A stretch of DNA of 64,000 nt from Escherichia coli (GTDB lineage: Bacteria > Pseudomonadota > Gammaproteobacteria > Enterobacterales > Enterobacteriaceae): assembly GCF_016026235.1 (NCBI RefSeq), contig NZ_CP065613.1. The stretch is one strand, 5' to 3'. The position numbers were made by a program, and so were the translations under genes. This document shows positions 24,244-33,855 of the stretch, one piece after another. Position 1 is the first letter of the stretch; each line of letters begins with the position of its first letter. The notes beneath the pieces are model-generated. The model was not told the origin of the DNA, did not search any database, and saw only the letters and a list, made by a program, of their open reading frames with translations.

Positions 24244-26304
24244 TCACTTCTTCATCTGCGACAAAATCGTCCGGCACTGATTAGCCTCCCCTTCGGAAGG
24301 TGAGATCAGTGCCAGCAACGCTGCCGCTGGCGTAACCAGCGTTGCCAGTGCCGCAGCAACAGCACCACGGGCAATCAACGGTCCGGCTTTCACTCCAGCC
24401 TGCGGATTTTTAAACGTCCCACGCACATACAGCGGCGAACGCAGTGTGATAATCCGAATTCCTTTACTCTCCGGATCAATAGTCAAATCCAGCTGTTCCG
24501 AAGCAAAACTTGCCGTGCCGGTAACGTTAATCAACGCGTTCTCAGTATCGAAAGCAAAGATCTGCGGGCGCGCCACGCCGTTGGCAATATCCAGATTCGC
24601 CGCCGCGCAGTTCACCCGCACCTCATCATCACCAAATATCGCACCGACAATGTAGTTGCCGACATTCAGCCCAACAATCTCCATCAGGTTGCGGCTCACC
24701 AGCCCGTCATTCATCAACAGTTTCAGGTTGCCGTTACTGTTGCCTAAAAGCGCCGCCACCGAGTTACCGCTACCGCGTAGTTCCGCGTCACCGTTCATTT
24801 CCCCCAGCGTCTTCTGCATCAGTTCCACATCGGGCATCAGTTCTTTCAGTTTCAGTCGACGAGCCTGAATATCTGCCCGCCCCTGCATCGGCTTTTTATC
24901 GCCTTCCAGATGGATATTCGCCGCAATGCTGCCGCCCGCCATGCCAAATTTCAGCGGTTGCAGGCGCAGGTCAGCATTTTTGAGGATGATATGAGTAGAA
25001 AGATCGCTAATCGGCAGGCTACTGCCATGCTCAATGCGCCGCCCTTTGAAGCGAACATCGGCATCCATAACGTCCCATTTATCGGTTTCGAAGCGGTCAT
25101 AAGGCAGCACTTTGCCCGCAGGCTGAACGCTTTTTTCGCCCTTCTTCTGTTCAGACCGTTTCGACTTTTCTGCCCCTTTCCCGGAATCAACGCCAATCAA
25201 CGGTCCCAGGTCCGCCAGCCGCAATTGCCGCGACTCGACATCACCTTCCAGTTTTGGTCGTGGCTTTCCGGTGGTGTAGACCAGAGAACCGTGGATATCG
25301 CTATCGCCAATTCGCCCATTAAAACCGCGATAATCAAAGACCGACGATTTTTCAGTGTCGATTTTCGCTACCAGCCGACCATCCGTTTCAAACGGCGGGG
25401 TATCGGGCAGCAGAACGCCCGTCAGTTCATAGAGATCACCCAGTGAATCGCCAGAAAATTTAAGCCGTAAATCGACACCGCCCATCTTCATTGGGTCATT
25501 CACGACGCCATCAAAAGCAACACGGGTGTTACCAGAGCGGAAATCAACCTGTACCGGAAACGGCGTCCCTTCGCCACGCAGCGCCAGCATACCGCCTATT
25601 TTTCCCGTACCCGTGAGCGGTTCACCGTTATAACGTCCCTGCGCCTTCAGGCCAAAAACGTAATCGCCCACCTTTTCTTTATCCGCTTTACCTTTCGATC
25701 CAGTAACTTCGCTGAACGGCAGCGGCTTGCCTAACGGATCAACAAAAATCTCCAGATCCGCTTTGCTTACTTTGTCATCAATGGCGATCCGCCCTTGATC
25801 GAAAAGAATATTATCCAGCCGAAACGACCATGCCGACGGCTTTGCATTCGCGTCTTTGTTGTCATCGTTGGCAAGATTAAACGTCCAGTTATTGTTCTTT
25901 TCAGAGAGGCGAATCAGGCGCGCGTCGGGCTTTTCGAGCTTGATCCACGGCAGCCAGACCGTTTTGGTCAGCAGCGCCAGCGGTGCCAGCGTTGCCTCTA
26001 CTCGCGGCAAATGCACCATCGTGACTTCGGGAATATCCGGTGGATTACCAAGAATGATGTCTTCTGCATGTACATGAGGCCACGGCACCCAGCTGCGCCA
26101 GCCAGTTTCTTGTTTTTGCCGCTCCCACACCACGCCCAGATCGCCACGGATAGCGAACGGACGATTCAACTCCGCAGAGACTTTCTGGTTGATGGTCGGT
26201 TTGAGTCGATTCCAGTCAAAAGTTGCAATCAAAATGATCGCCACGACAATCAACAACAAGAAAGCCCCTGAAATCGCAGCGGTTATTTTGCCTGCCTTGC
26301 TCAT
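24244..26304 (-). CDS. yhjG: AsmA-family envelope protein YhjG
   Basis: 686-aa ORF from ATG 26304 (GAGGAAG SD upstream); alternative start 15 nt further upstream. Confidence 0.8.
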   Translation of the reverse strand: MSKAGKITAAISGAFLLLIVVAIILIATFDWNRLKPTINQKVSAELNRPFAIRGDLGVVWERQKQETGWRSWVPWPHVHAEDIILGNPPDIPEVTMVHLPRVEATLAPLALLTKTVWLPWIKLEKPDARLIRLSEKNNNWTFNLANDDNKDANAKPSAWSFRLDNILFDQGRIAIDDKVSKADLEIFVDPLGKPLPFSEVTGSKGKADKEKVGDYVFGLKAQGRYNGEPLTGTGKIGGMLALRGEGTPFPVQVDFRSGNTRVAFDGVVNDPMKMGGVDLRLKFSGDSLGDLYELTGVLLPDTPPFETDGRLVAKIDTEKSSVFDYRGFNGRIGDSDIHGSLVYTTGKPRPKLEGDVESRQLRLADLGPLIGVDSGKGAEKSKRSEQKKGEKSVQPAGKVLPYDRFETDKWDVMDADVRFKGRRIEHGSSLPISDLSTHIILKNADLRLQPLKFGMAGGSIAANIHLEGDKKPMQGRADIQARRLKLKELMPDVELMQKTLGEMNGDAELRGSGNSVAALLGNSNGNLKLLMNDGLVSRNLMEIVGLNVGNYIVGAIFGDDEVRVNCAAANLDIANGVARPQIFAFDTENALINVTGTASFASEQLDLTIDPESKGIRIITLRSPLYVRGTFKNPQAGVKAGPLIARGAVAAALATLVTPAAALLALISPSEGEANQCRTILSQMKK

Positions 26305-26373
26305 CGTTCGCTTCCTCATATTCTTCCTGTGCCAGTCCTAAAGATAGTCCAGCCAGGCGGAAAATGAGGCAGC

Positions 26374-27141
26374 TTATAGCGCCAGAACCGCCGTATTCAG
26401 CGTTTCTATCGGTGCCGGGCGTGAAAGAAACCAGCCTTGTGCGGCGAATGCGGGCGAGTTCTGAACATCACGCCACTCTTCCGGCGTTTCTACGCCCTCG
26501 ACAATCACCCCGCGACAATAGCGATTCATTAGATGTAAAAGCTGAGAAAAGAGTGTGCGGCCTTCCGGCGACTGACGCAGCATCACAAACAGTTCTCGCG
26601 CGATTTTGATGTAGTCATAACGCACTTCACTTAGTGCAGAGAAATTTGCCATCCCGGTACCAAAATCATCCAGCCACAGCGGGCCAAATTCACACATCGA
26701 GGCAAAGGTTGAATCTTTCGGCAGACGGATATGCCCCACCAGTTCGAAACGCAGCCAGGGAAGACGCTCAATCTGGCGCAGGATTTTTGGTTGCTGACGC
26801 AGGGCGATGAGCGTAGGGCCATCAATATTGACCGATGCCAGCAGGTCGTGCTCTACAAAGAAGTCGGCTTTTTGCGCCAGCAAATCAATCTGCTCTTTCA
26901 CAACCTCCATCCGATGGCTGACGGTGATTTCAGTAAAATAGCGATCCGGCGGCAGGCGTTGCGAAGGGTTCAAGGGATGCGTGACCACCGTTAATAGCTC
27001 CACGGCCATTAACCGTCCGCATGTTTGATAGATCGGCTGCCAGGTGTAAGCACGCTCACACTGCAACCAAAAACGCCGTTCCTGCAAGCTCTCGATGCTT
27101 GCTTCAGGGTTGCTTATTCGCTGGATAACCTGCCTTATCAT
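26374..27141 (-). CDS. pdeH: EAL-domain c-di-GMP phosphodiesterase PdeH (YhjH)
   Basis: 255-aa ORF from ATG 27141 (MIRQVIQRIS...); recalled identity. Confidence 0.85.
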   Translation of the reverse strand: MIRQVIQRISNPEASIESLQERRFWLQCERAYTWQPIYQTCGRLMAVELLTVVTHPLNPSQRLPPDRYFTEITVSHRMEVVKEQIDLLAQKADFFVEHDLLASVNIDGPTLIALRQQPKILRQIERLPWLRFELVGHIRLPKDSTFASMCEFGPLWLDDFGTGMANFSALSEVRYDYIKIARELFVMLRQSPEGRTLFSQLLHLMNRYCRGVIVEGVETPEEWRDVQNSPAFAAQGWFLSRPAPIETLNTAVLAL

Positions 27142-27287
27142 CAAAGATGTCCTGTGTTTAAAAGTGATGCTGCCCGGACTCGACAAAGATTATCGGCGCG
27201 CAAGGGCAGAACTTTACCGCCTGGCCGAGGTAAATTTCCTCACTCCACAACGGAATCTTTCAGGAATACGTTCTGGCTCAAAAAAAT

Positions 27288-27306
27288 AATGGAACACTGT
27301 TTTAAT
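27288..27306 (+). promoter_or_regulatory. candidate KdgR operator upstream of kdgK
   Basis: AATGGAACACTGTTTTAAT seen about 67 bp upstream of the kdgK ATG; resembles the recalled KdgR box AATGAAACAnTGTTTCATT. Confidence 0.4.
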
Positions 27307-27372
27307 ATGGTTGACCAGCAAACCACCACAGCGCAAACTAACGCTAATTTTTTACAGATCAGGTTCACGACT

Positions 27373-28302
27373 ATGTCCAAAAAGATTGCCGTGATTGGCG
27401 AATGCATGATTGAGCTTTCCGAGAAAGGCGCGGACGTTAAGCGCGGTTTCGGCGGCGATACCCTGAACACTTCCGTCTATATCGCCCGTCAGGTCGATCC
27501 TGCGGCATTAACCGTTCATTACGTAACGGCGCTGGGAACGGACAGTTTTAGCCAGCAGATGCTGGACGCCTGGCACAGCGAGAACGTTGATACTTCCCTG
27601 ACCCAACGGATGGAAAACCGTCTTCCGGGCCTTTACTACATTGAAACCGACAGCACCGGCGAACGTACATTCTACTACTGGCGTAACGAAGCCGCTGCCA
27701 AATTCTGGCTGGAGAGCGAGCAGTCTGCGGCGATTTGTGCAGAGCTGGCGAATTTCGATTATCTCTACCTGAGCGGGATTAGCCTGGCGATCTTAAGCCC
27801 GACCAGCCGCGAGAAACTGCTTTCCCTGCTGCGCGAATGCCGCGCCAACGGCGGAAAAGTGATTTTCGACAATAACTATCGTCCGCGCCTGTGGGCCAGC
27901 AAAGAAGAGACACAGCAGGTGTACCAGCAAATGCTGGAATGCACGGATATCGCCTTCCTGACGCTGGACGACGAAGACGCGCTGTGGGGTCAACAGCCGG
28001 TGGAAGACGTCATTGCGCGCACCCATAACGCGGGCGTGAAAGAAGTGGTGGTGAAACGCGGGGCAGATTCTTGCCTGGTGTCCATTGCTGGCGAAGGGTT
28101 AGTGGATGTTCCGGCGGTGAAACTGCCGAAAGAAAAAGTGATCGATACCACCGCAGCTGGCGACTCTTTCAGTGCCGGTTATCTGGCGGTACGTTTGACG
28201 GGCGGCAGTGCGGAAAACGCAGCGAAACGCGGGCACCTGACCGCAAGTACCGTTATTCAGTATCGCGGCGCGATTATCCCGCGTGAGGCGATGCCGGAAT
28301 AA
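27373..28302 (+). CDS. kdgK: 2-dehydro-3-deoxygluconokinase
   Basis: 309-aa ORF from ATG 27373 (MSKKIAVIGECM...); PfkB-family kinase; the track's upstream extension rejected. Confidence 0.9.
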   Translation: MSKKIAVIGECMIELSEKGADVKRGFGGDTLNTSVYIARQVDPAALTVHYVTALGTDSFSQQMLDAWHSENVDTSLTQRMENRLPGLYYIETDSTGERTFYYWRNEAAAKFWLESEQSAAICAELANFDYLYLSGISLAILSPTSREKLLSLLRECRANGGKVIFDNNYRPRLWASKEETQQVYQQMLECTDIAFLTLDDEDALWGQQPVEDVIARTHNAGVKEVVVKRGADSCLVSIAGEGLVDVPAVKLPKEKVIDTTAAGDSFSAGYLAVRLTGGSAENAAKRGHLTASTVIQYRGAIIPREAMPE

Positions 28303-28396
28303 TGGTTTTTGACGGAGAACGGGTAGATATTCGTTCTCCGTTAATAGTTACAGCAGTACACTATCAGCCTGTTGATAATCGTAATGCCGTAACAAT

Positions 28397-29602
28397 ATGC
28401 CATCTTGCAAAAGGATTTTTGCAGCTTCACTTCTTCTGATCGGCCTGGGCTACGGGCTGCATATTTTATTTACCCCCTCACAACCGCTTCGCTTTGATCA
28501 GCAAGTCTATATCTGGCAACGCGTCTGGACGGCAGAACATCACGAGGCACTCAAACGAAGCCGCCCGCTTTTCTCTACGCTGCGCATACTTGGGATGCAA
28601 TTTCATCCGCAAGAAGGCATCCGACACTTTACGGTTAATACTTCACTTATTAAGCAAGATGGTCGCCCGGTCTGGCTGGTCGCGCGACTCGATGGCCAGC
28701 TTACACGGTTTAATAACCAGCAAATTATCCAGCATATTCAACAGACCCTACGTGAGTGGCAAAAGGCAGGTATTACGCTGGCAGGGGTGGAAATTGATTA
28801 TGACGCGCCAACAGCAAAATTGCCGGAATATCTGACACTACTTAGTGCGTTACATCAGGCACTTCCTACAAATATAAAACTTAGCGTTACCGCCCTGCCC
28901 ACCTGGCTTGATTCACCACATCTCGCCCGATTATTGCGCATTGCGGACACTTCGGTTTTACAGGTACATAACGTGCTTTCGCCCGAAAAAGGCCTGTTAG
29001 ATGCCAGTCTGGCGCAGAGTTGGGTAAAGCAATATGCCAGGCAAACCACGCACCCTTTTTTCATCGCATTGCCCGCTTATGGCTCCGCACTCACCAGTGA
29101 TAATCGTGTCGAAAGCGAATCCCCGCTATACGTTGCTGATGAAATGCGAGAACTAAGTGTATCGCCACAAACGATTGCCGAGTTTATTCAATATATAGAA
29201 CAGCAACCACCGCGTGGATTACAGGGGTTGGTATGGTTTCGGCTACCGTTAGCAGGCGATCGCCGCGCCTGGTCACTGACAACACTGGAAGCCGTGATTC
29301 GACATCAACCGCTGACTCCGCGCTGGTCGTTAATAATTACTCAACATACAGACAAGCAACTTTTTGATCTGGCCTTTAAAAACAGCGGCGTAATTGATGC
29401 GCCGTTGCCAAAACAAATAATTCTGCCCAATGCAGATTGTCTATTCGCTGATGGAGCCGGTCACTATCAGGTGCAACCTGGACCATCCAGCCTGAATTTT
29501 GTGAGAGGAAGCGCCAGGCAACTGCGCGCCGGAGAAAGCAGTCCGCTGGGATGGGCGCGCTGTAATCAAAAAATTCAAGGAGAGTTTAATGTTATCCCCT
29601 AG
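28397..29602 (+). CDS. hypothetical exported or membrane-anchored protein (accessory; not at this position in K-12)
   Basis: 401-aa ORF with N-terminal hydrophobic segment (IFAASLLLIGLGYGLHILF); weak SD; 14-nt overlap with next ORF; family not recognised. Confidence 0.6.
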   Translation: MPSCKRIFAASLLLIGLGYGLHILFTPSQPLRFDQQVYIWQRVWTAEHHEALKRSRPLFSTLRILGMQFHPQEGIRHFTVNTSLIKQDGRPVWLVARLDGQLTRFNNQQIIQHIQQTLREWQKAGITLAGVEIDYDAPTAKLPEYLTLLSALHQALPTNIKLSVTALPTWLDSPHLARLLRIADTSVLQVHNVLSPEKGLLDASLAQSWVKQYARQTTHPFFIALPAYGSALTSDNRVESESPLYVADEMRELSVSPQTIAEFIQYIEQQPPRGLQGLVWFRLPLAGDRRAWSLTTLEAVIRHQPLTPRWSLIITQHTDKQLFDLAFKNSGVIDAPLPKQIILPNADCLFADGAGHYQVQPGPSSLNFVRGSARQLRAGESSPLGWARCNQKIQGEFNVIP

Positions 29603-31631
29603 AATATCGCGGCTTTCCGTTATTGTATTTCTCTCACTAATTAGCGCCAACGTTAATGCCTGTGGACCATTTATTCCTAACCATCTGTTAACTGACCGCA
29701 ATAGCGCACTGCTGGAAATGCCAAATGGCAGTTTTGTCTTTGAAGTACAACAGTTGGCTAAACGCGATCCTGGTTTACCAATATGGCATGAAAATACGCC
29801 CGCGGAGGCAACGCAGGAAAATACAGATGATGATGCTGAGCCTCCTGTGCAAAATAGGTCACTGGAAATCGCGCAAAAATTGCAGAAACCATTATCTGAT
29901 GCGCAGTGGCTGTATTATTCAGGAGCTAAGGATTTTCATCAGGGAAAATACGATAGCCCTTACTTTCAGCAATTATTAGCCTTGCCGAAAACAGAGCAAG
30001 GGGAATGGCGTCTTGCTGCGCTATATAGTCTGGCAAGAGGGGGATTTGATGCCACTGACGACAATCTCGATCTGATAATCAATAAAGGCGGCTTTAATCA
30101 GGAAATTGCTGAGCAGGCCATACAACGTTATCAGCAAATCATTGAAGAGGTCCGTAATGGCGTAGCCGATCCTGAGCAGCTCTCTCTCGCCAGTCTCGGT
30201 CAGATTGGGCATTATTATCTGAAAAAAGGTGATGTCGCGGCGGCAGTAAAAATTTATGCCCGGCAAGCGGCCCAGGGTTCGCCCTCCGGGAAAGCTTCGT
30301 TACGAATGATTTCGTTATATCTAACCAGGGAGAAAAATTTACCACTGCTGGAATCGGTTATTGATGATCCACTGGTTCAGCAACTGGTAATCGCAGAGCT
30401 CTTTATTCGTCAAGACTGGGGATATGACAGCGAAGCCTGTACTAAAGACCTTGTAGATTATACCTGTCCAACGCATCGCGACCGTTTAATTAAGTTGCTA
30501 AGTCAACACAGAGTGAAAGGGTTTAGTTATAGCGATCGACTTGCAGCGCTGGCGTATCGGGCAGGAAATTATTCGTTAGCACAAATGCTATTGCAGGATG
30601 CGCCAGAAAGTGGCTTAAGCGAATGGTTAAAAGCAAAACTGGCATTACGAGCCGGAGATATTCCACTGGCAACGCGTCACTATGCTCGCGCAGCCCCGCA
30701 GTTCCCTGCCGATGAAGTCTGGGGAAGTATGGACCCAGAAAGCCCTTATTACCATGCCGATAAAGTTACCGTCCCCTCTTGCCGTATTGCCAGTGAGCAA
30801 GCGATTTTGGCATTAAAACGCGATGATTATCTTCAGGCGACCGCATTGTTTTACCAGGCCAAAGATCTCTATTGGGCCGATTTAGCCTGGGTGGCAGAAA
30901 ACGTTTTGACCTTGTCGGAGTTACAGGCGTTTGTTGAAAAAAACGTACCGGTACCTCAGCACCCTTTAAAACCTGTAGATTTAAACAATAGCAGTTACGG
31001 TTATTATATTTCGCCAGATATCATTCCAACGGATGTTAAATTACGAGCACTATTAGGGAGACGATTAATTCGTCATGGCCAGTACCAGCAGGCCATTAAT
31101 TGGTTTGATATTCCCAATTATCGCCAGGCCGCACAAAAACTGGCTGATTTAATGGCGATAGCAAAAAATAAAAATATCCCTGATAAGCAACGCGCCCAGG
31201 CGCAATATGAAGCTGCGCGGCTTTTGCGTTTCAGTGGTATCGAATTGGTGGCTTATGAAATGTATCCCGATTATGCCATTTCCAGTGGGCAGTATTCAGA
31301 ACCTTTTGAATACAGCAATAACGATTACTGGATAAGTCGTAAAGAAAAACAACGTATTCGCTACGCAATCCCCACCGCTGATGATCATTTTTTGCATTAT
31401 CGCTGGCAGGCTGCGGAATGGGCCGGACAATCTGCCGATTTACTTCACCCTAAAACCCAGGCATGGGCTGCCGTGTTATGCCATGCTGCAAGTTGGGTCA
31501 GATATCCTGATCCAGAAACCGGTGCATTAATTTATCAACGCTACGTAAAAAACGGTAAAGCTTTTGACTGGGCTGCGCATTTTGGTCGTGATTGTCCAGA
31601 ACCAGTGTTTAAGAAGGATCTGAAGAAATAA
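29589..31631 (+). CDS. hypothetical secreted protein or lipoprotein with helical repeat-like regions (accessory)
   Basis: 680-aa ORF, AGGAG SD 8 nt upstream, signal peptide ending ...LISANVNA-C; family not recognised. Confidence 0.6.
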   Translation: MLSPRISRLSVIVFLSLISANVNACGPFIPNHLLTDRNSALLEMPNGSFVFEVQQLAKRDPGLPIWHENTPAEATQENTDDDAEPPVQNRSLEIAQKLQKPLSDAQWLYYSGAKDFHQGKYDSPYFQQLLALPKTEQGEWRLAALYSLARGGFDATDDNLDLIINKGGFNQEIAEQAIQRYQQIIEEVRNGVADPEQLSLASLGQIGHYYLKKGDVAAAVKIYARQAAQGSPSGKASLRMISLYLTREKNLPLLESVIDDPLVQQLVIAELFIRQDWGYDSEACTKDLVDYTCPTHRDRLIKLLSQHRVKGFSYSDRLAALAYRAGNYSLAQMLLQDAPESGLSEWLKAKLALRAGDIPLATRHYARAAPQFPADEVWGSMDPESPYYHADKVTVPSCRIASEQAILALKRDDYLQATALFYQAKDLYWADLAWVAENVLTLSELQAFVEKNVPVPQHPLKPVDLNNSSYGYYISPDIIPTDVKLRALLGRRLIRHGQYQQAINWFDIPNYRQAAQKLADLMAIAKNKNIPDKQRAQAQYEAARLLRFSGIELVAYEMYPDYAISSGQYSEPFEYSNNDYWISRKEKQRIRYAIPTADDHFLHYRWQAAEWAGQSADLLHPKTQAWAAVLCHAASWVRYPDPETGALIYQRYVKNGKAFDWAAHFGRDCPEPVFKKDLKK

Positions 31632-32139
31632 CCTTGCAGAAGTGAGAAGGGCTACCCTTACGGACTGGTGAAAACTGCTGACGCATATCATTCAAACTAC
31701 GCGTAAATTTAAGCGGATTCTCGCCTTTGATTTCGACTGTGACGAAAATATCGCCATTGTTGTTAAAAAAGTTAAAATAATAGTCATGCTGGTGTCGACG
31801 GTTAGTTTTAAATTGACGAAATGACAAATAGCACCGTTCGTCATAGGTAATCAAAAAATCATTTTCCCCGTACCCATTTACCATCTTGTTTTTTAAGTTA
31901 CCCTCGAAGAGAACAGAATACTTATCTCTGTCAGCAAATAATTCGGCATCCGTTTCTCGGTTGATCGTGTTTACACTAACACCAAATTCTATTTTTATTT
32001 TTTCTTTACTGATACTGTCTTTTGTATCGACATAAATGTTATTCTCATTCCAGAATAAGAGGAAGTTTTTGTTACAGGAGTAGAGGCCAGTTAAGCAGAG
32101 TACGATTATTAGCAAGAATAGTATGGCTTTGTAGCGCAT
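31609..32139 (-). CDS. hypothetical small exported protein or lipoprotein, AT-rich (accessory)
   Basis: 176-aa ORF with signal peptide (ILFLLIIVLCLTGLYSC), AAGGAA SD upstream; noticeably lower GC than flanks by eye; 3' end overlaps the convergent 680-aa ORF by 23 nt. Confidence 0.5.
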   Translation of the reverse strand: MRYKAILFLLIIVLCLTGLYSCNKNFLLFWNENNIYVDTKDSISKEKIKIEFGVSVNTINRETDAELFADRDKYSVLFEGNLKNKMVNGYGENDFLITYDERCYLSFRQFKTNRRHQHDYYFNFFNNNGDIFVTVEIKGENPLKFTRSLNDMRQQFSPVRKGSPSHFCKVISSDPS

Positions 32140-32322
32140 TTACATTCCTTTCAGTATGTTACGTTCACAAAGTGAGTTTCTTTTCTTTATATAAACCACA
32201 GCAATAATTAAACCCACTCTACGGTAAGCTTATTTTAATAATGAAGGATTATCTGCACGCTACCGCCGTGCCAGGAAAAATATCAGCAGGTATATAACGG
32301 TAACTTATTCATTACCGTTAAT

Positions 32323-32351
32323 CCCGGCAGCGTAGAAAAAACGCTGCCGGG
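32323..32351 (-). terminator. hairpin terminator downstream of yhjJ
   Basis: stem cccggcagcg/cgctgccggg flanked by A/T runs, seen immediately 3' of the yhjJ stop. Confidence 0.5.
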
Positions 32352-32358
32352 TTATTTA

Positions 32359-33855
32359 TTACTGCGCGGGTGGAATATCCGAAACTTCAGGATGGACGTC
32401 ATCCGTGGCTACGGATGTCGTCACAGCCGCAGTCGATGGGGCCATGATTTGATCCCAGACCGCCTGCAACGCTTTCATGTTAAATTCCGGCTCGCCTTTC
32501 GGCTGCAGCAGTATTAACGCCATATCATTCGACAACTGCTGACGCAGATCCTGATTTAACATCTCCACCGTCAGGCTGTTAAGGAAATCCTGCCGCAGTT
32601 TCTGATACTGCTCCGGCGCGATATCGACGACCTGATTTTGCAACGAACGCATCCGCTGACCCATCAGAATATCGGTATCAGCCCGCGCATAGGCGGCAAA
32701 CAGTTTCTGCAGCTCCAGTTTCTTTTGCGCCACTAACGCATTGAACTCTTCTTCCGGCAGACCTTTATCGCGAACCTTCGCCAGTTCACGCGCCACCAGA
32801 TTAAGGTTGCTGTTCAGCTTGTCGTTTGGTGATTCGATGTTGATGGCACACTGCGCACGCAGATACAGCACACGGCAGTCAAATCCAAGACCGATGTCTT
32901 TGCTGTTACTGGCGCTTAACGCTTGCTGAACATGCCAGAACAGCGCCTCACGGGCCAGGTCCGCACGCCAGTAGCGCAGCAGTGCGGCTGATTCACGAAT
33001 CGGCTGCCACGGCGTATCCCACATGATAGATAACCGGTCCTGACGCACCGCGTCAGTCATAATACTCACCGCTTCCGCACGCAGCGGAGAAAGCGTCGGC
33101 ACCGGAGCCGGTGTTTCACGTTTGCCTTTCAGTTCGCCAAACGTTTTGTTGATTTGGTCGACAACCGAGCGCGCATCCACGTTTCCCACCACCAGCAGCG
33201 TCATTGCATCCGGGGTGTACCATTTCTGATAGAAATCTTTAATCTTTTCCGCTTCAACGGGTTGTTTCAGCGGATCGGCAGGATCGTGACCTAACAAGGT
33301 TGACCCTTTCAGACGATAGCGCCACCAGCCCTCTTTAGTATCGGCAGGCCAGGTTGCCACCATGTCCTGACTTTGCAGCGCGTGGTTGATGGTTTCTGGC
33401 GTGATAGTCAGTTTGCCAGTGGCATTTGCCAGATAAGAGAGCGCCTCTTTCAGCAAATCGTTACGGTTATTGGGCAAACTCAGATTAAACAGCGTGGTGT
33501 CATAAGAGACAATTACCGGCGGCATCGGGCGTTTAGGGTCGATCCCCTGCTGCCACAATGAACGCGCCTGTGCTGCGTCAAGGCCACCGCTTTGCGTTAG
33601 CGCAATACGAGGGATGGCGTGACTGTAACCGCTCTGTTGTGTACTTTCGGCGAGCGAACCGGTATTAACCAGCAGGCGAATTTCAACACGATCGCTGGGA
33701 CGCTGGGGGGTGGTCAGCACTTGCCACTGTAAACCGTTGGAAAGCGTCCCCTGTTGCCATGCTGGATCAGGCTGGAGCGCATCTGCCTGCACATAGCCAG
33801 CAGTGGCCATCATCAGCAAACCGCCCGCTAAAAGTCGAATTTTTGTGCCCTGCAT
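32359..33855 (-). CDS. yhjJ: M16-family zinc peptidase-like protein YhjJ
   Basis: 498-aa ORF with signal peptide; synteny. Confidence 0.85.
   Translation of the reverse strand: MQGTKIRLLAGGLLMMATAGYVQADALQPDPAWQQGTLSNGLQWQVLTTPQRPSDRVEIRLLVNTGSLAESTQQSGYSHAIPRIALTQSGGLDAAQARSLWQQGIDPKRPMPPVIVSYDTTLFNLSLPNNRNDLLKEALSYLANATGKLTITPETINHALQSQDMVATWPADTKEGWWRYRLKGSTLLGHDPADPLKQPVEAEKIKDFYQKWYTPDAMTLLVVGNVDARSVVDQINKTFGELKGKRETPAPVPTLSPLRAEAVSIMTDAVRQDRLSIMWDTPWQPIRESAALLRYWRADLAREALFWHVQQALSASNSKDIGLGFDCRVLYLRAQCAINIESPNDKLNSNLNLVARELAKVRDKGLPEEEFNALVAQKKLELQKLFAAYARADTDILMGQRMRSLQNQVVDIAPEQYQKLRQDFLNSLTVEMLNQDLRQQLSNDMALILLQPKGEPEFNMKALQAVWDQIMAPSTAAVTTSVATDDVHPEVSDIPPAQ

Follow-up and report, generated by a model that had tools for sequence, protein, structure and literature searches.

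Glycan-active enzymes are tethered, targeted, or regulated by other periplasmic tetratricopeptide repeat (TPR) proteins. The PgaA/PgaB, PelB/PelA, BcsC/BcsZ, and AlgK/AlgL modules each pair a periplasmic TPR scaffold with a glycan hydrolase, while ActH-LytH, LpoA-PBP1A, LpoP, CpoB, and NlpI, TPR-containing activators of cell wall enzymes, are among the closest known systems to the one that we describe here. This system is a two-gene cassette, A-B, located between kdgK and yhjJ in Escherichia coli (NCBI RefSeq assembly GCF_016026235.1, contig NZ_CP065613.1), in a stretch of 64,000 nucleotides (nt) that we call the window and whose positions are used throughout. Open reading frame (ORF) A encodes a protein of the DUF3142 family and ORF B a large helical protein; a third gene, ORF C, lies next to them and is shown below to be a separate entity.

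To our knowledge, a first functional handle on DUF3142 was obtained only in 2025-2026, from TfeC of Yersinia pseudotuberculosis. The two TfeC structures (PDB 8y6t and 9vtv) were deposited as those of a chitinase, according to the PDB title, and the protein is presented as an antifungal chitinase delivered by T6SS4, a type VI secretion system (T6SS), in two reviews (PMC13008689 and PMC13162877) that cite Zhu et al. 2026 (Nat Microbiol 11:240). The TfeC chain counts 262 amino acids (aa) and is about 19% identical to A, which has in addition a C-terminal β-sandwich and a TPR-like partner encoded downstream. Whereas TfeC is delivered by a T6SS, A bears a Sec signal anchor, replaced by a lipobox in Pseudomonas. 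TfeC-like effectors would be expected to lack a Sec signal and to be genetically linked to T6SS, VgrG, PAAR, or adaptor genes, and A-B has no T6SS gene in any of the neighborhoods examined. GH18 chitinases and GH18-fold enzymes (for example, 3fnd, 4q6t, and SleL) have a fold like that of A, at 10 to 16% identity. The Pga, Pel, Bcs, and Alg modules contain the same kind of pair as A-B, but A-B has no co-operonic synthase, no outer membrane β-barrel, and no larger operon around it, being limited to two mobile genes. Within DUF3142, of which one protein is characterized, A is a new member with an architecture of its own, and B founds a large family with neither a Pfam or NCBIfam model nor a solved structure; the association of a hydrolase with a TPR partner is itself an arrangement of a known kind. 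We propose, at somewhat better than even odds, that A, tethered to the membrane, hydrolyzes a glycan in the periplasm by means of a DxD-containing motif on strand β4 and that B is its TPR-like partner, produced at a fixed ratio to A for tethering, targeting, or regulation.

Results

ORF A belongs to DUF3142 and has a GH18-like fold

A matched DUF3142 (PF11340) in Pfam with an E value of 8.6e-77 and a score of 258, residues 88 to 285 covering positions 1 to 201 of the 202 in the model, and an identical gene is annotated by NCBI as encoding a DUF3142 domain-containing protein. The AlphaFold2 model, obtained from an alignment containing 44 homologs (predicted local distance difference test [pLDDT], 89.8), is composed of an N-terminal signal-anchor helix (residues 3 to 24), an eight-stranded (β/α)8 barrel (residues ∼34 to 300), and a C-terminal β-sandwich (residues 310 to 400) with an invariant pair of cysteines, C348 and C389. 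The predicted structure resembles that of TfeC (8y6t), the solved member of DUF3142, and its barrel has the (β/α)8 TIM-barrel fold of GH18 glycoside hydrolases. The connection of A to GH18 is a structural one, drawn from the predicted model. Since the motif of A is noncanonical and no sequence-level link is detectable, we assign A to DUF3142, with a fold like that of GH18, and not to GH18 itself.

Strand β4 of A reads G-V-E132-I-D134-Y-D136-A, and E132, D134, and D136 are invariant in 44 diverse sequences. The motif of A is E-x-D-x-D, compared with D-x-x-D-x-D-x-E in GH18 and with LDFDIEG in E. coli ChiA. The many invariant aromatic residues of A, which include W40, W44, W170, W280, Y38, and Y228, fit what is expected of a sugar-binding cleft. 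An earlier, preliminary description of this DNA, made from the sequence alone, had recognized no catalytic motif in the three proteins; for A, that statement is superseded by the assignment to DUF3142, the GH18-like barrel, and the invariant acidic cluster. The same description had called the proteins uncharacterized, which stands for B and C, neither of which has an assigned function, and falls in part for A, whose family includes one studied member, TfeC, reported as a chitinase. We also considered that A is an inactive, lectin-like "chitinase-like protein" and that the pair forms a glycan sensor or adhesin. This seems quite improbable, since TfeC, which has the same D-x-D arrangement, was deposited and is cited as an active chitinase and since the strict invariance of the acidic triad over such diverse sequences is more characteristic of a catalytic function than of a binding one.

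ORF B is an exported, TPR-like helical protein

The N terminus of B reads MLSPRISRLSVIVFLSLISANVNA-CGP, a Sec signal followed by the nearly invariant residues A24-C25-G26-P27. A canonical lipobox would read [LVI][ASTVI][GAS]C where the signal peptide ends. Cys25 of B is invariant, but the residues preceding it are variable at positions -3 and -2 and often noncanonical (VNA-C, GYA-C, SHA-C, and ALA-C), and they suit an AXA site for signal peptidase I no worse than a lipobox. The model of B (pLDDT, 85.7) contains about 34 helices, no sheet, and no β-barrel, and the predicted fold is an all-helical TPR-like solenoid. B belongs to no Pfam family and has no sequence match in Pfam, NCBIfam, or the PDB beyond weak TPR signals: B itself matches the Pfam TPR models insignificantly (E values of ≥0.5), TPR_16, TPR_12, and TPR_MalT each reach an E value of ≤1e-3 in 2 of 54 B homologs, and the profile of the B family aligns with the consensus TPR at an E value of 7.7e-6 over only ∼75 positions. 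A profile search of 1.84 billion representatives retrieved 2,502 relatives of B at an E value of ≤1e-3, and the family amounts to ∼2,500 clusters at 50% identity. BLASTP detected no relationship between A and B, and searches of NCBIfam, PADLOC, and PHROGs yielded nothing significant for A, B, or C.

The alignment of the B family revealed three invariant cysteines, C25, C631, and C669, and several family-specific motifs, including a conserved HYR and a conserved E..PD. We regard the invariant cysteines of A and B as a hallmark of periplasmic proteins. The HYR and E..PD motifs, together with the invariant N-terminal Cys-Gly-Pro, are compatible with a reading that we consider less likely than not, in which A-B is the E. 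coli member of a large, unnamed, and unstudied two-protein system that couples a DUF3142 glycanase obligately to a new family of helical-repeat proteins. The pair would have as its target an envelope glycan of the cell itself, such as nascent peptidoglycan or a membrane-proximal polymer of N-acetylglucosamine (GlcNAc), and B would contribute, with these motifs, an activity or ligand site of its own instead of being a passive scaffold.

Two relatives of B deserve separate mention. A B-like protein of 901 aa (AlphaFold database entry A0A964VQ79) is annotated with a LysM domain, which binds peptidoglycan or chitin (GlcNAc glycans), a hint that the B family handles GlcNAc-containing glycans. In Enterobacteriaceae bacterium B14 (locus L032, 7150 to 11230), a single A gene is followed by two tandem B-family genes, indicating a duplication of the partner.

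A and B form an obligate pair

A survey of a single genome from each species identified 432 loci encoding a relative of A. Among the 87 A-carrying loci that were assembled from this survey and from others that we fetched, B lies directly downstream of A and on the same strand in 86 cases, and we conclude that A and B are an obligate pair. The two genes overlap by 14 nt in at least 77 of 85 loci. This overlap is retained from E. coli to Pseudomonas and is also found in four metagenomic loci whose B proteins are only 26 to 30% identical to B of the window, and a Shine-Dalgarno-like motif precedes the start of B in almost every related locus. The translation of B is likely coupled to that of A, as the preliminary description had suggested from the window alone, and the conservation of the overlap across phyla-level distances strengthens this claim. 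Comparison with two other E. coli alleles yielded ratios of nonsynonymous to synonymous substitution rates (dN/dS) of 0.14 to 0.22, demonstrating that A, B, and C are all under purifying selection.

An apparent A-B fusion, the metagenomic protein P0486 (1,176 aa), was evaluated as Rosetta-stone proof and rejected, as it keeps an internal B signal peptide and a truncated version of the last domain of A, the β-sandwich; a frameshift at the 14-nt overlap in the gene call is its probable origin. Another apparent DUF3142-B fusion is AlphaFold database entry A0A8S0H9A0 (1,101 aa).

The A-B cassette occurs in unrelated contexts

A-B was seen across Proteobacteria and also in Myxococcota, Verrucomicrobiota, and other phyla. 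The genes that flank it change with the genus: in Escherichia it lies between kdgK and yhjJ, in Serratia between panZ and rpoH, in a Klebsiella-like contig between iap and cas3, and in Pseudomonas among varied genes. Because these contexts are unrelated, we consider A-B to be a self-contained, horizontally mobile two-gene cassette and its pdeH/pdeK/bcs neighborhood in E. coli to be functionally uninformative. The preliminary description had grouped A, B, and C into a three-gene module, for which it raised, as a speculative possibility, an envelope or exopolysaccharide role connected to the adjacent cyclic di-GMP phosphodiesterases and cellulose genes. A role on an envelope glycan is compatible with the folds of the proteins, but the argument from pdeH, pdeK, and bcs fails, as other genera have other neighbors. 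As a whole, such a module is to be regarded as highly improbable: C is unlinked to A-B elsewhere, neither a synthase nor a glycosyltransferase is conserved beside the cassette (glycosyltransferases were found upstream of A-B at a single Pseudomonas locus in the neighborhoods of four genera), B has no β-barrel porin domain, and A-B is missing from 5,396 of 5,426 complete E. coli genomes.

The carriers of A-B are largely soil-, plant-, and insect-associated bacteria (Serratia, fluorescent Pseudomonas, Xanthomonadales, Budvicia, and Hafnia). This ecology, together with the family and the DxD motif that A and TfeC have in common, would suit an offensive or nutritional chitinase like TfeC, exported to attack fungal or insect chitin or to trim imported chito-oligosaccharides in the periplasm, with B as a partner for secretion, chaperoning, or substrate capture. 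We nonetheless find this function unlikely. The means of anchoring argue against release, since A is held by an N-terminal signal anchor in Enterobacterales and has a classical lipobox in Pseudomonas. No T6SS, type II secretion system, or chb/nag chitin-catabolic gene is linked to A-B in the neighborhoods examined, and many carriers, such as E. coli and many fluorescent Pseudomonas, are not known to be notably chitinolytic.

The anchors of B are complementary to those of A, as B has a C-terminal transmembrane helix and a poly-Arg tail in Pseudomonas and no C-terminal helix in Enterobacterales, a distribution that fits a complex requiring at least one membrane tether.

In Serratia (locus L004, 7612 to 8004 and 8001 to 9218), the gene of a panZ-like acetyltransferase runs 4 nt into the start of A, an arrangement suggesting that A is cotranscribed there with the upstream housekeeping gene.

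Organization of the locus in the window

The kdgK and yhjJ genes are adjacent in E. coli K-12 MG1655, separated by 95 bp. The flanks of the window are 98.7 to 99.0% identical to K-12, and homology ends at position 28295 and resumes at position 32358, which bears out the insertion of ∼4 kb reported in the preliminary description. The three ORFs reported there were all recovered from a six-frame ORF list (Table 1), and the account given of them proved accurate in several respects: A and B are codirectional and exported, with a 14-nt overlap and a Shine-Dalgarno motif; B combines a Sec signal with the helical stretches that had been noted, now modeled as a solenoid; C is convergent and AT rich, with a predicted lipoprotein-type signal where export had been noted; and the island contains no transposase or integrase. 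Indeed, neither other mobility genes nor flanking or terminal repeats were found in the island by inspection of the ORF list and by repeat searches. The GC content is 0.34 to 0.38 in C, 0.42 to 0.51 in A-B, and 0.52 to 0.57 in the flanks, and the 3' ends of B and C overlap convergently by 23 nt.

Table 1. Features of the kdgK-yhjJ junction in the window
Feature	Coordinates	Strand	Remarks
kdgK	end 28302		Left neighbor of the insert
kdgK-A intergenic region	28303..28396	+	Hairpin at ∼28312-28342, without a T-run
A-B block	28346..31671	+	Relative to E. coli islands without A-B (BLAST against locus L003)
ORF A	28397..29602	+	401 aa
Shine-Dalgarno motif AAGGAG for B	29577..29582	+	Within the 3' end of A, 6 nt 5' of the B ATG
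A/B overlap	29589..29602	+	14 nt; B ATG at 29589, A stop TAG at 29600-29602
ORF B	29589..31631	+	680 aa
ORF C	31609..32139	-	176 aa
GC-rich hairpin	32323..32351	unassigned	11-bp stem, just past the yhjJ stop (terminator scan and sequence)
yhjJ	32359-33855	-	Right neighbor of the insert

The first 43 nt of the kdgK-A intergenic region (28303 to 28345) are also present in islands without A-B, as revealed by BLAST against locus L003. A scan of this region found neither a promoter nor a terminator consensus, the promoter scan being no better than shuffled sequence, and an Rfam scan of the island returned no match and no riboswitch. The hairpin at the yhjJ end is probably a terminator common to both convergent transcription units.

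ORF C is separate from the A-B cassette

The signal of C, MRYKAILFLLIIVLCLTGLYS-C, ends with the lipobox ...LTGLYS-C, from which C is predicted to be a small AT-rich lipoprotein; one homolog is named "Lipoprotein" in a UniRef source. C has no match in Pfam, NCBIfam, PADLOC, PHROGs, or the PDB. Its homologs in Escherichia are 73 to 99% identical, and the next best ones, at ∼50 to 57%, belong to Bacteroidota (Riemerella, Tenacibaculum, Aureispira, and Cyclobacteriaceae). The Tenacibaculum homolog sits in an array of ∼15 small genes, mostly without a Pfam match, and that of Riemerella is a singleton. C was not found at the A-B loci of any other genus examined, and ∼170 E. coli genomes that lack A-B carry a C homolog (∼84% identity) with other small minus-strand genes at the kdgK-yhjJ junction, E. 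coli N3 being an example. On these grounds, and given its base composition and its affinity to Bacteroidota, C stands outside the A-B system and belongs instead to a strain-variable block of small minus-strand genes, so that the three-gene module is not retained.

A small gene of the junction arrays (window, 31609 to 32139; L003, 3972 to 6165; L097, 5668 to 7845; and L096) is labeled "TriTu family immunity protein" in RefSeq; the label was not reproduced with NCBIfam on our ORF coordinates for the small genes of the N3 island. The island of small genes that contains C would seem to have been acquired horizontally across phyla, and it possibly holds orphan immunity genes, which is a weak lead.

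The kdgK-yhjJ junction is a mosaic

Of the 5,426 complete E. coli genomes, 30 carry A-B, each in a single chromosomal copy, and SMS-3-5 is among the carriers. A-B is a rare accessory trait in E. coli, and, in agreement with the preliminary description, none of A, B, and C is a core E. coli gene. The window is 99.8 to 99.9% identical to E. coli FDAARGOS_943, and the A-B identity in the remaining carriers ranges from 83.7% to 95.4%, a divergence far greater than that of the flanks. E. coli 2013C-4282 has A, B, and C plus four further small genes. BLAST homology between the window and L003 covers positions 24303 to 28345, 31672 to 32151, and 32203 onwards. The right junction of the A-B block falls inside the 3' end of C, and the C homolog of L003 is a protein of 194 aa with a different tail, the position of the junction accounting for the distinct C-terminal tail of C in the window. 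We conclude that the kdgK-yhjJ junction is a mosaic recombination hotspot, which hosts the A-B block and a variable array of small AT-rich genes including C.

Compared with positions 28397 to 31631 of the window, the A-B genes of 2013C-4282 (L097, 2501 to 5690) encode an A protein that is 67.6% identical, with a saturated dS of ∼1.6, next to a B protein that is 93.8% identical. This contrast points to recombination within the cassette, with a breakpoint near the A/B boundary, by which divergent A alleles were joined to the same B. A-B also occurs in other Escherichia species and cryptic clades, namely, in Escherichia sp. E1V33 (L010), E. fergusonii (AlphaFold database entry B7LSZ9), and E. marmotae (P0003). 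In E1V33, it occupies the same kdgK-yhjJ locus, with 94.6% identity along 11 kb. In E. coli, the rare copies may thus be remnants of an ancestral state or have entered by introgression via homology of the flanks.

Discussion

Our current working hypothesis is that A and B act as a protein pair at the cell envelope, on its periplasmic side. A would be a DUF3142 glycoside hydrolase with a GH18-like barrel, tethered to the membrane, presumably the inner one, and would most likely cleave a β-linked N-acetylhexosamine glycan by means of the invariant acidic cluster on β4, of which D134 and D136 are shared with the chitinase TfeC. Translational coupling would set a fixed proportion of B to A, and the solenoid of B would bind A in a complex and tether, target, or regulate it. 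Candidate substrates may include peptidoglycan, chito-oligosaccharides, and other GlcNAc-containing glycans of the envelope.

Several observations weigh against this hypothesis. The similarity between A and TfeC is remote, at 19% identity and with hidden Markov model coverage of β4 to β6 only, and TfeC is a T6SS effector made in the cytoplasm, not a Sec-exported protein. The canonical GH18 motif DxxDxDxE does not occur in A, which has an Asp at the position of the GH18 catalytic Glu, the Pfam search returned no PF00704 match for A, and hhalign gave no signal between the A family and the GH18 domain of E. coli ChiA (probability of 0.2%). The A gene of Hafnia paralvei ATCC 29927 (L020, 5872 to 7137) has no B, the next genes being on the opposite strand, and is the sole exception among the 87 loci. 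No glycan synthase or transporter is linked to A-B in the neighborhoods examined, so that the substrate cannot be read from the context.

By analogy with ActH-LytH, LpoA-PBP1A, and NlpI-MepS, A might more specifically be a peptidoglycan glycosidase working near the inner membrane, with B as its TPR activator or scaffold; we judge this variant unlikely, about on a par with the offensive or nutritional chitinase discussed above. Two further readings of A-B were rejected. A toxin-immunity couple does not fit, because B greatly exceeds known immunity proteins in size and because A and B both carry export signals, and a role in phage defense was discarded in the absence of PADLOC matches. The proposal of a membrane-tethered glycan hydrolase with a TPR-like partner is the one that we retain.

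The Sec-exported, membrane-tethered combination of a DUF3142 barrel with a β-sandwich and a helical partner of ∼700 aa appears to be a widespread and unstudied branch of this family; the literature searched on DUF3142, its solved structures, and the RefSeq proteins contained a mention in a list and no functional study. The biology of cellulose or cyclic di-GMP in E. coli does not include A-B, whose link to its neighbors is coincidental. The invariant overlap, the swapping of anchors between A and B, and the mobility of the cassette make for a clean, experimentally tractable two-gene system. Resolving the function of A-B would give a meaning to thousands of proteins currently annotated as "hypothetical" or "TPR" and could reveal a new route for the processing of a GlcNAc-containing glycan at the inner membrane of Gram-negative bacteria.

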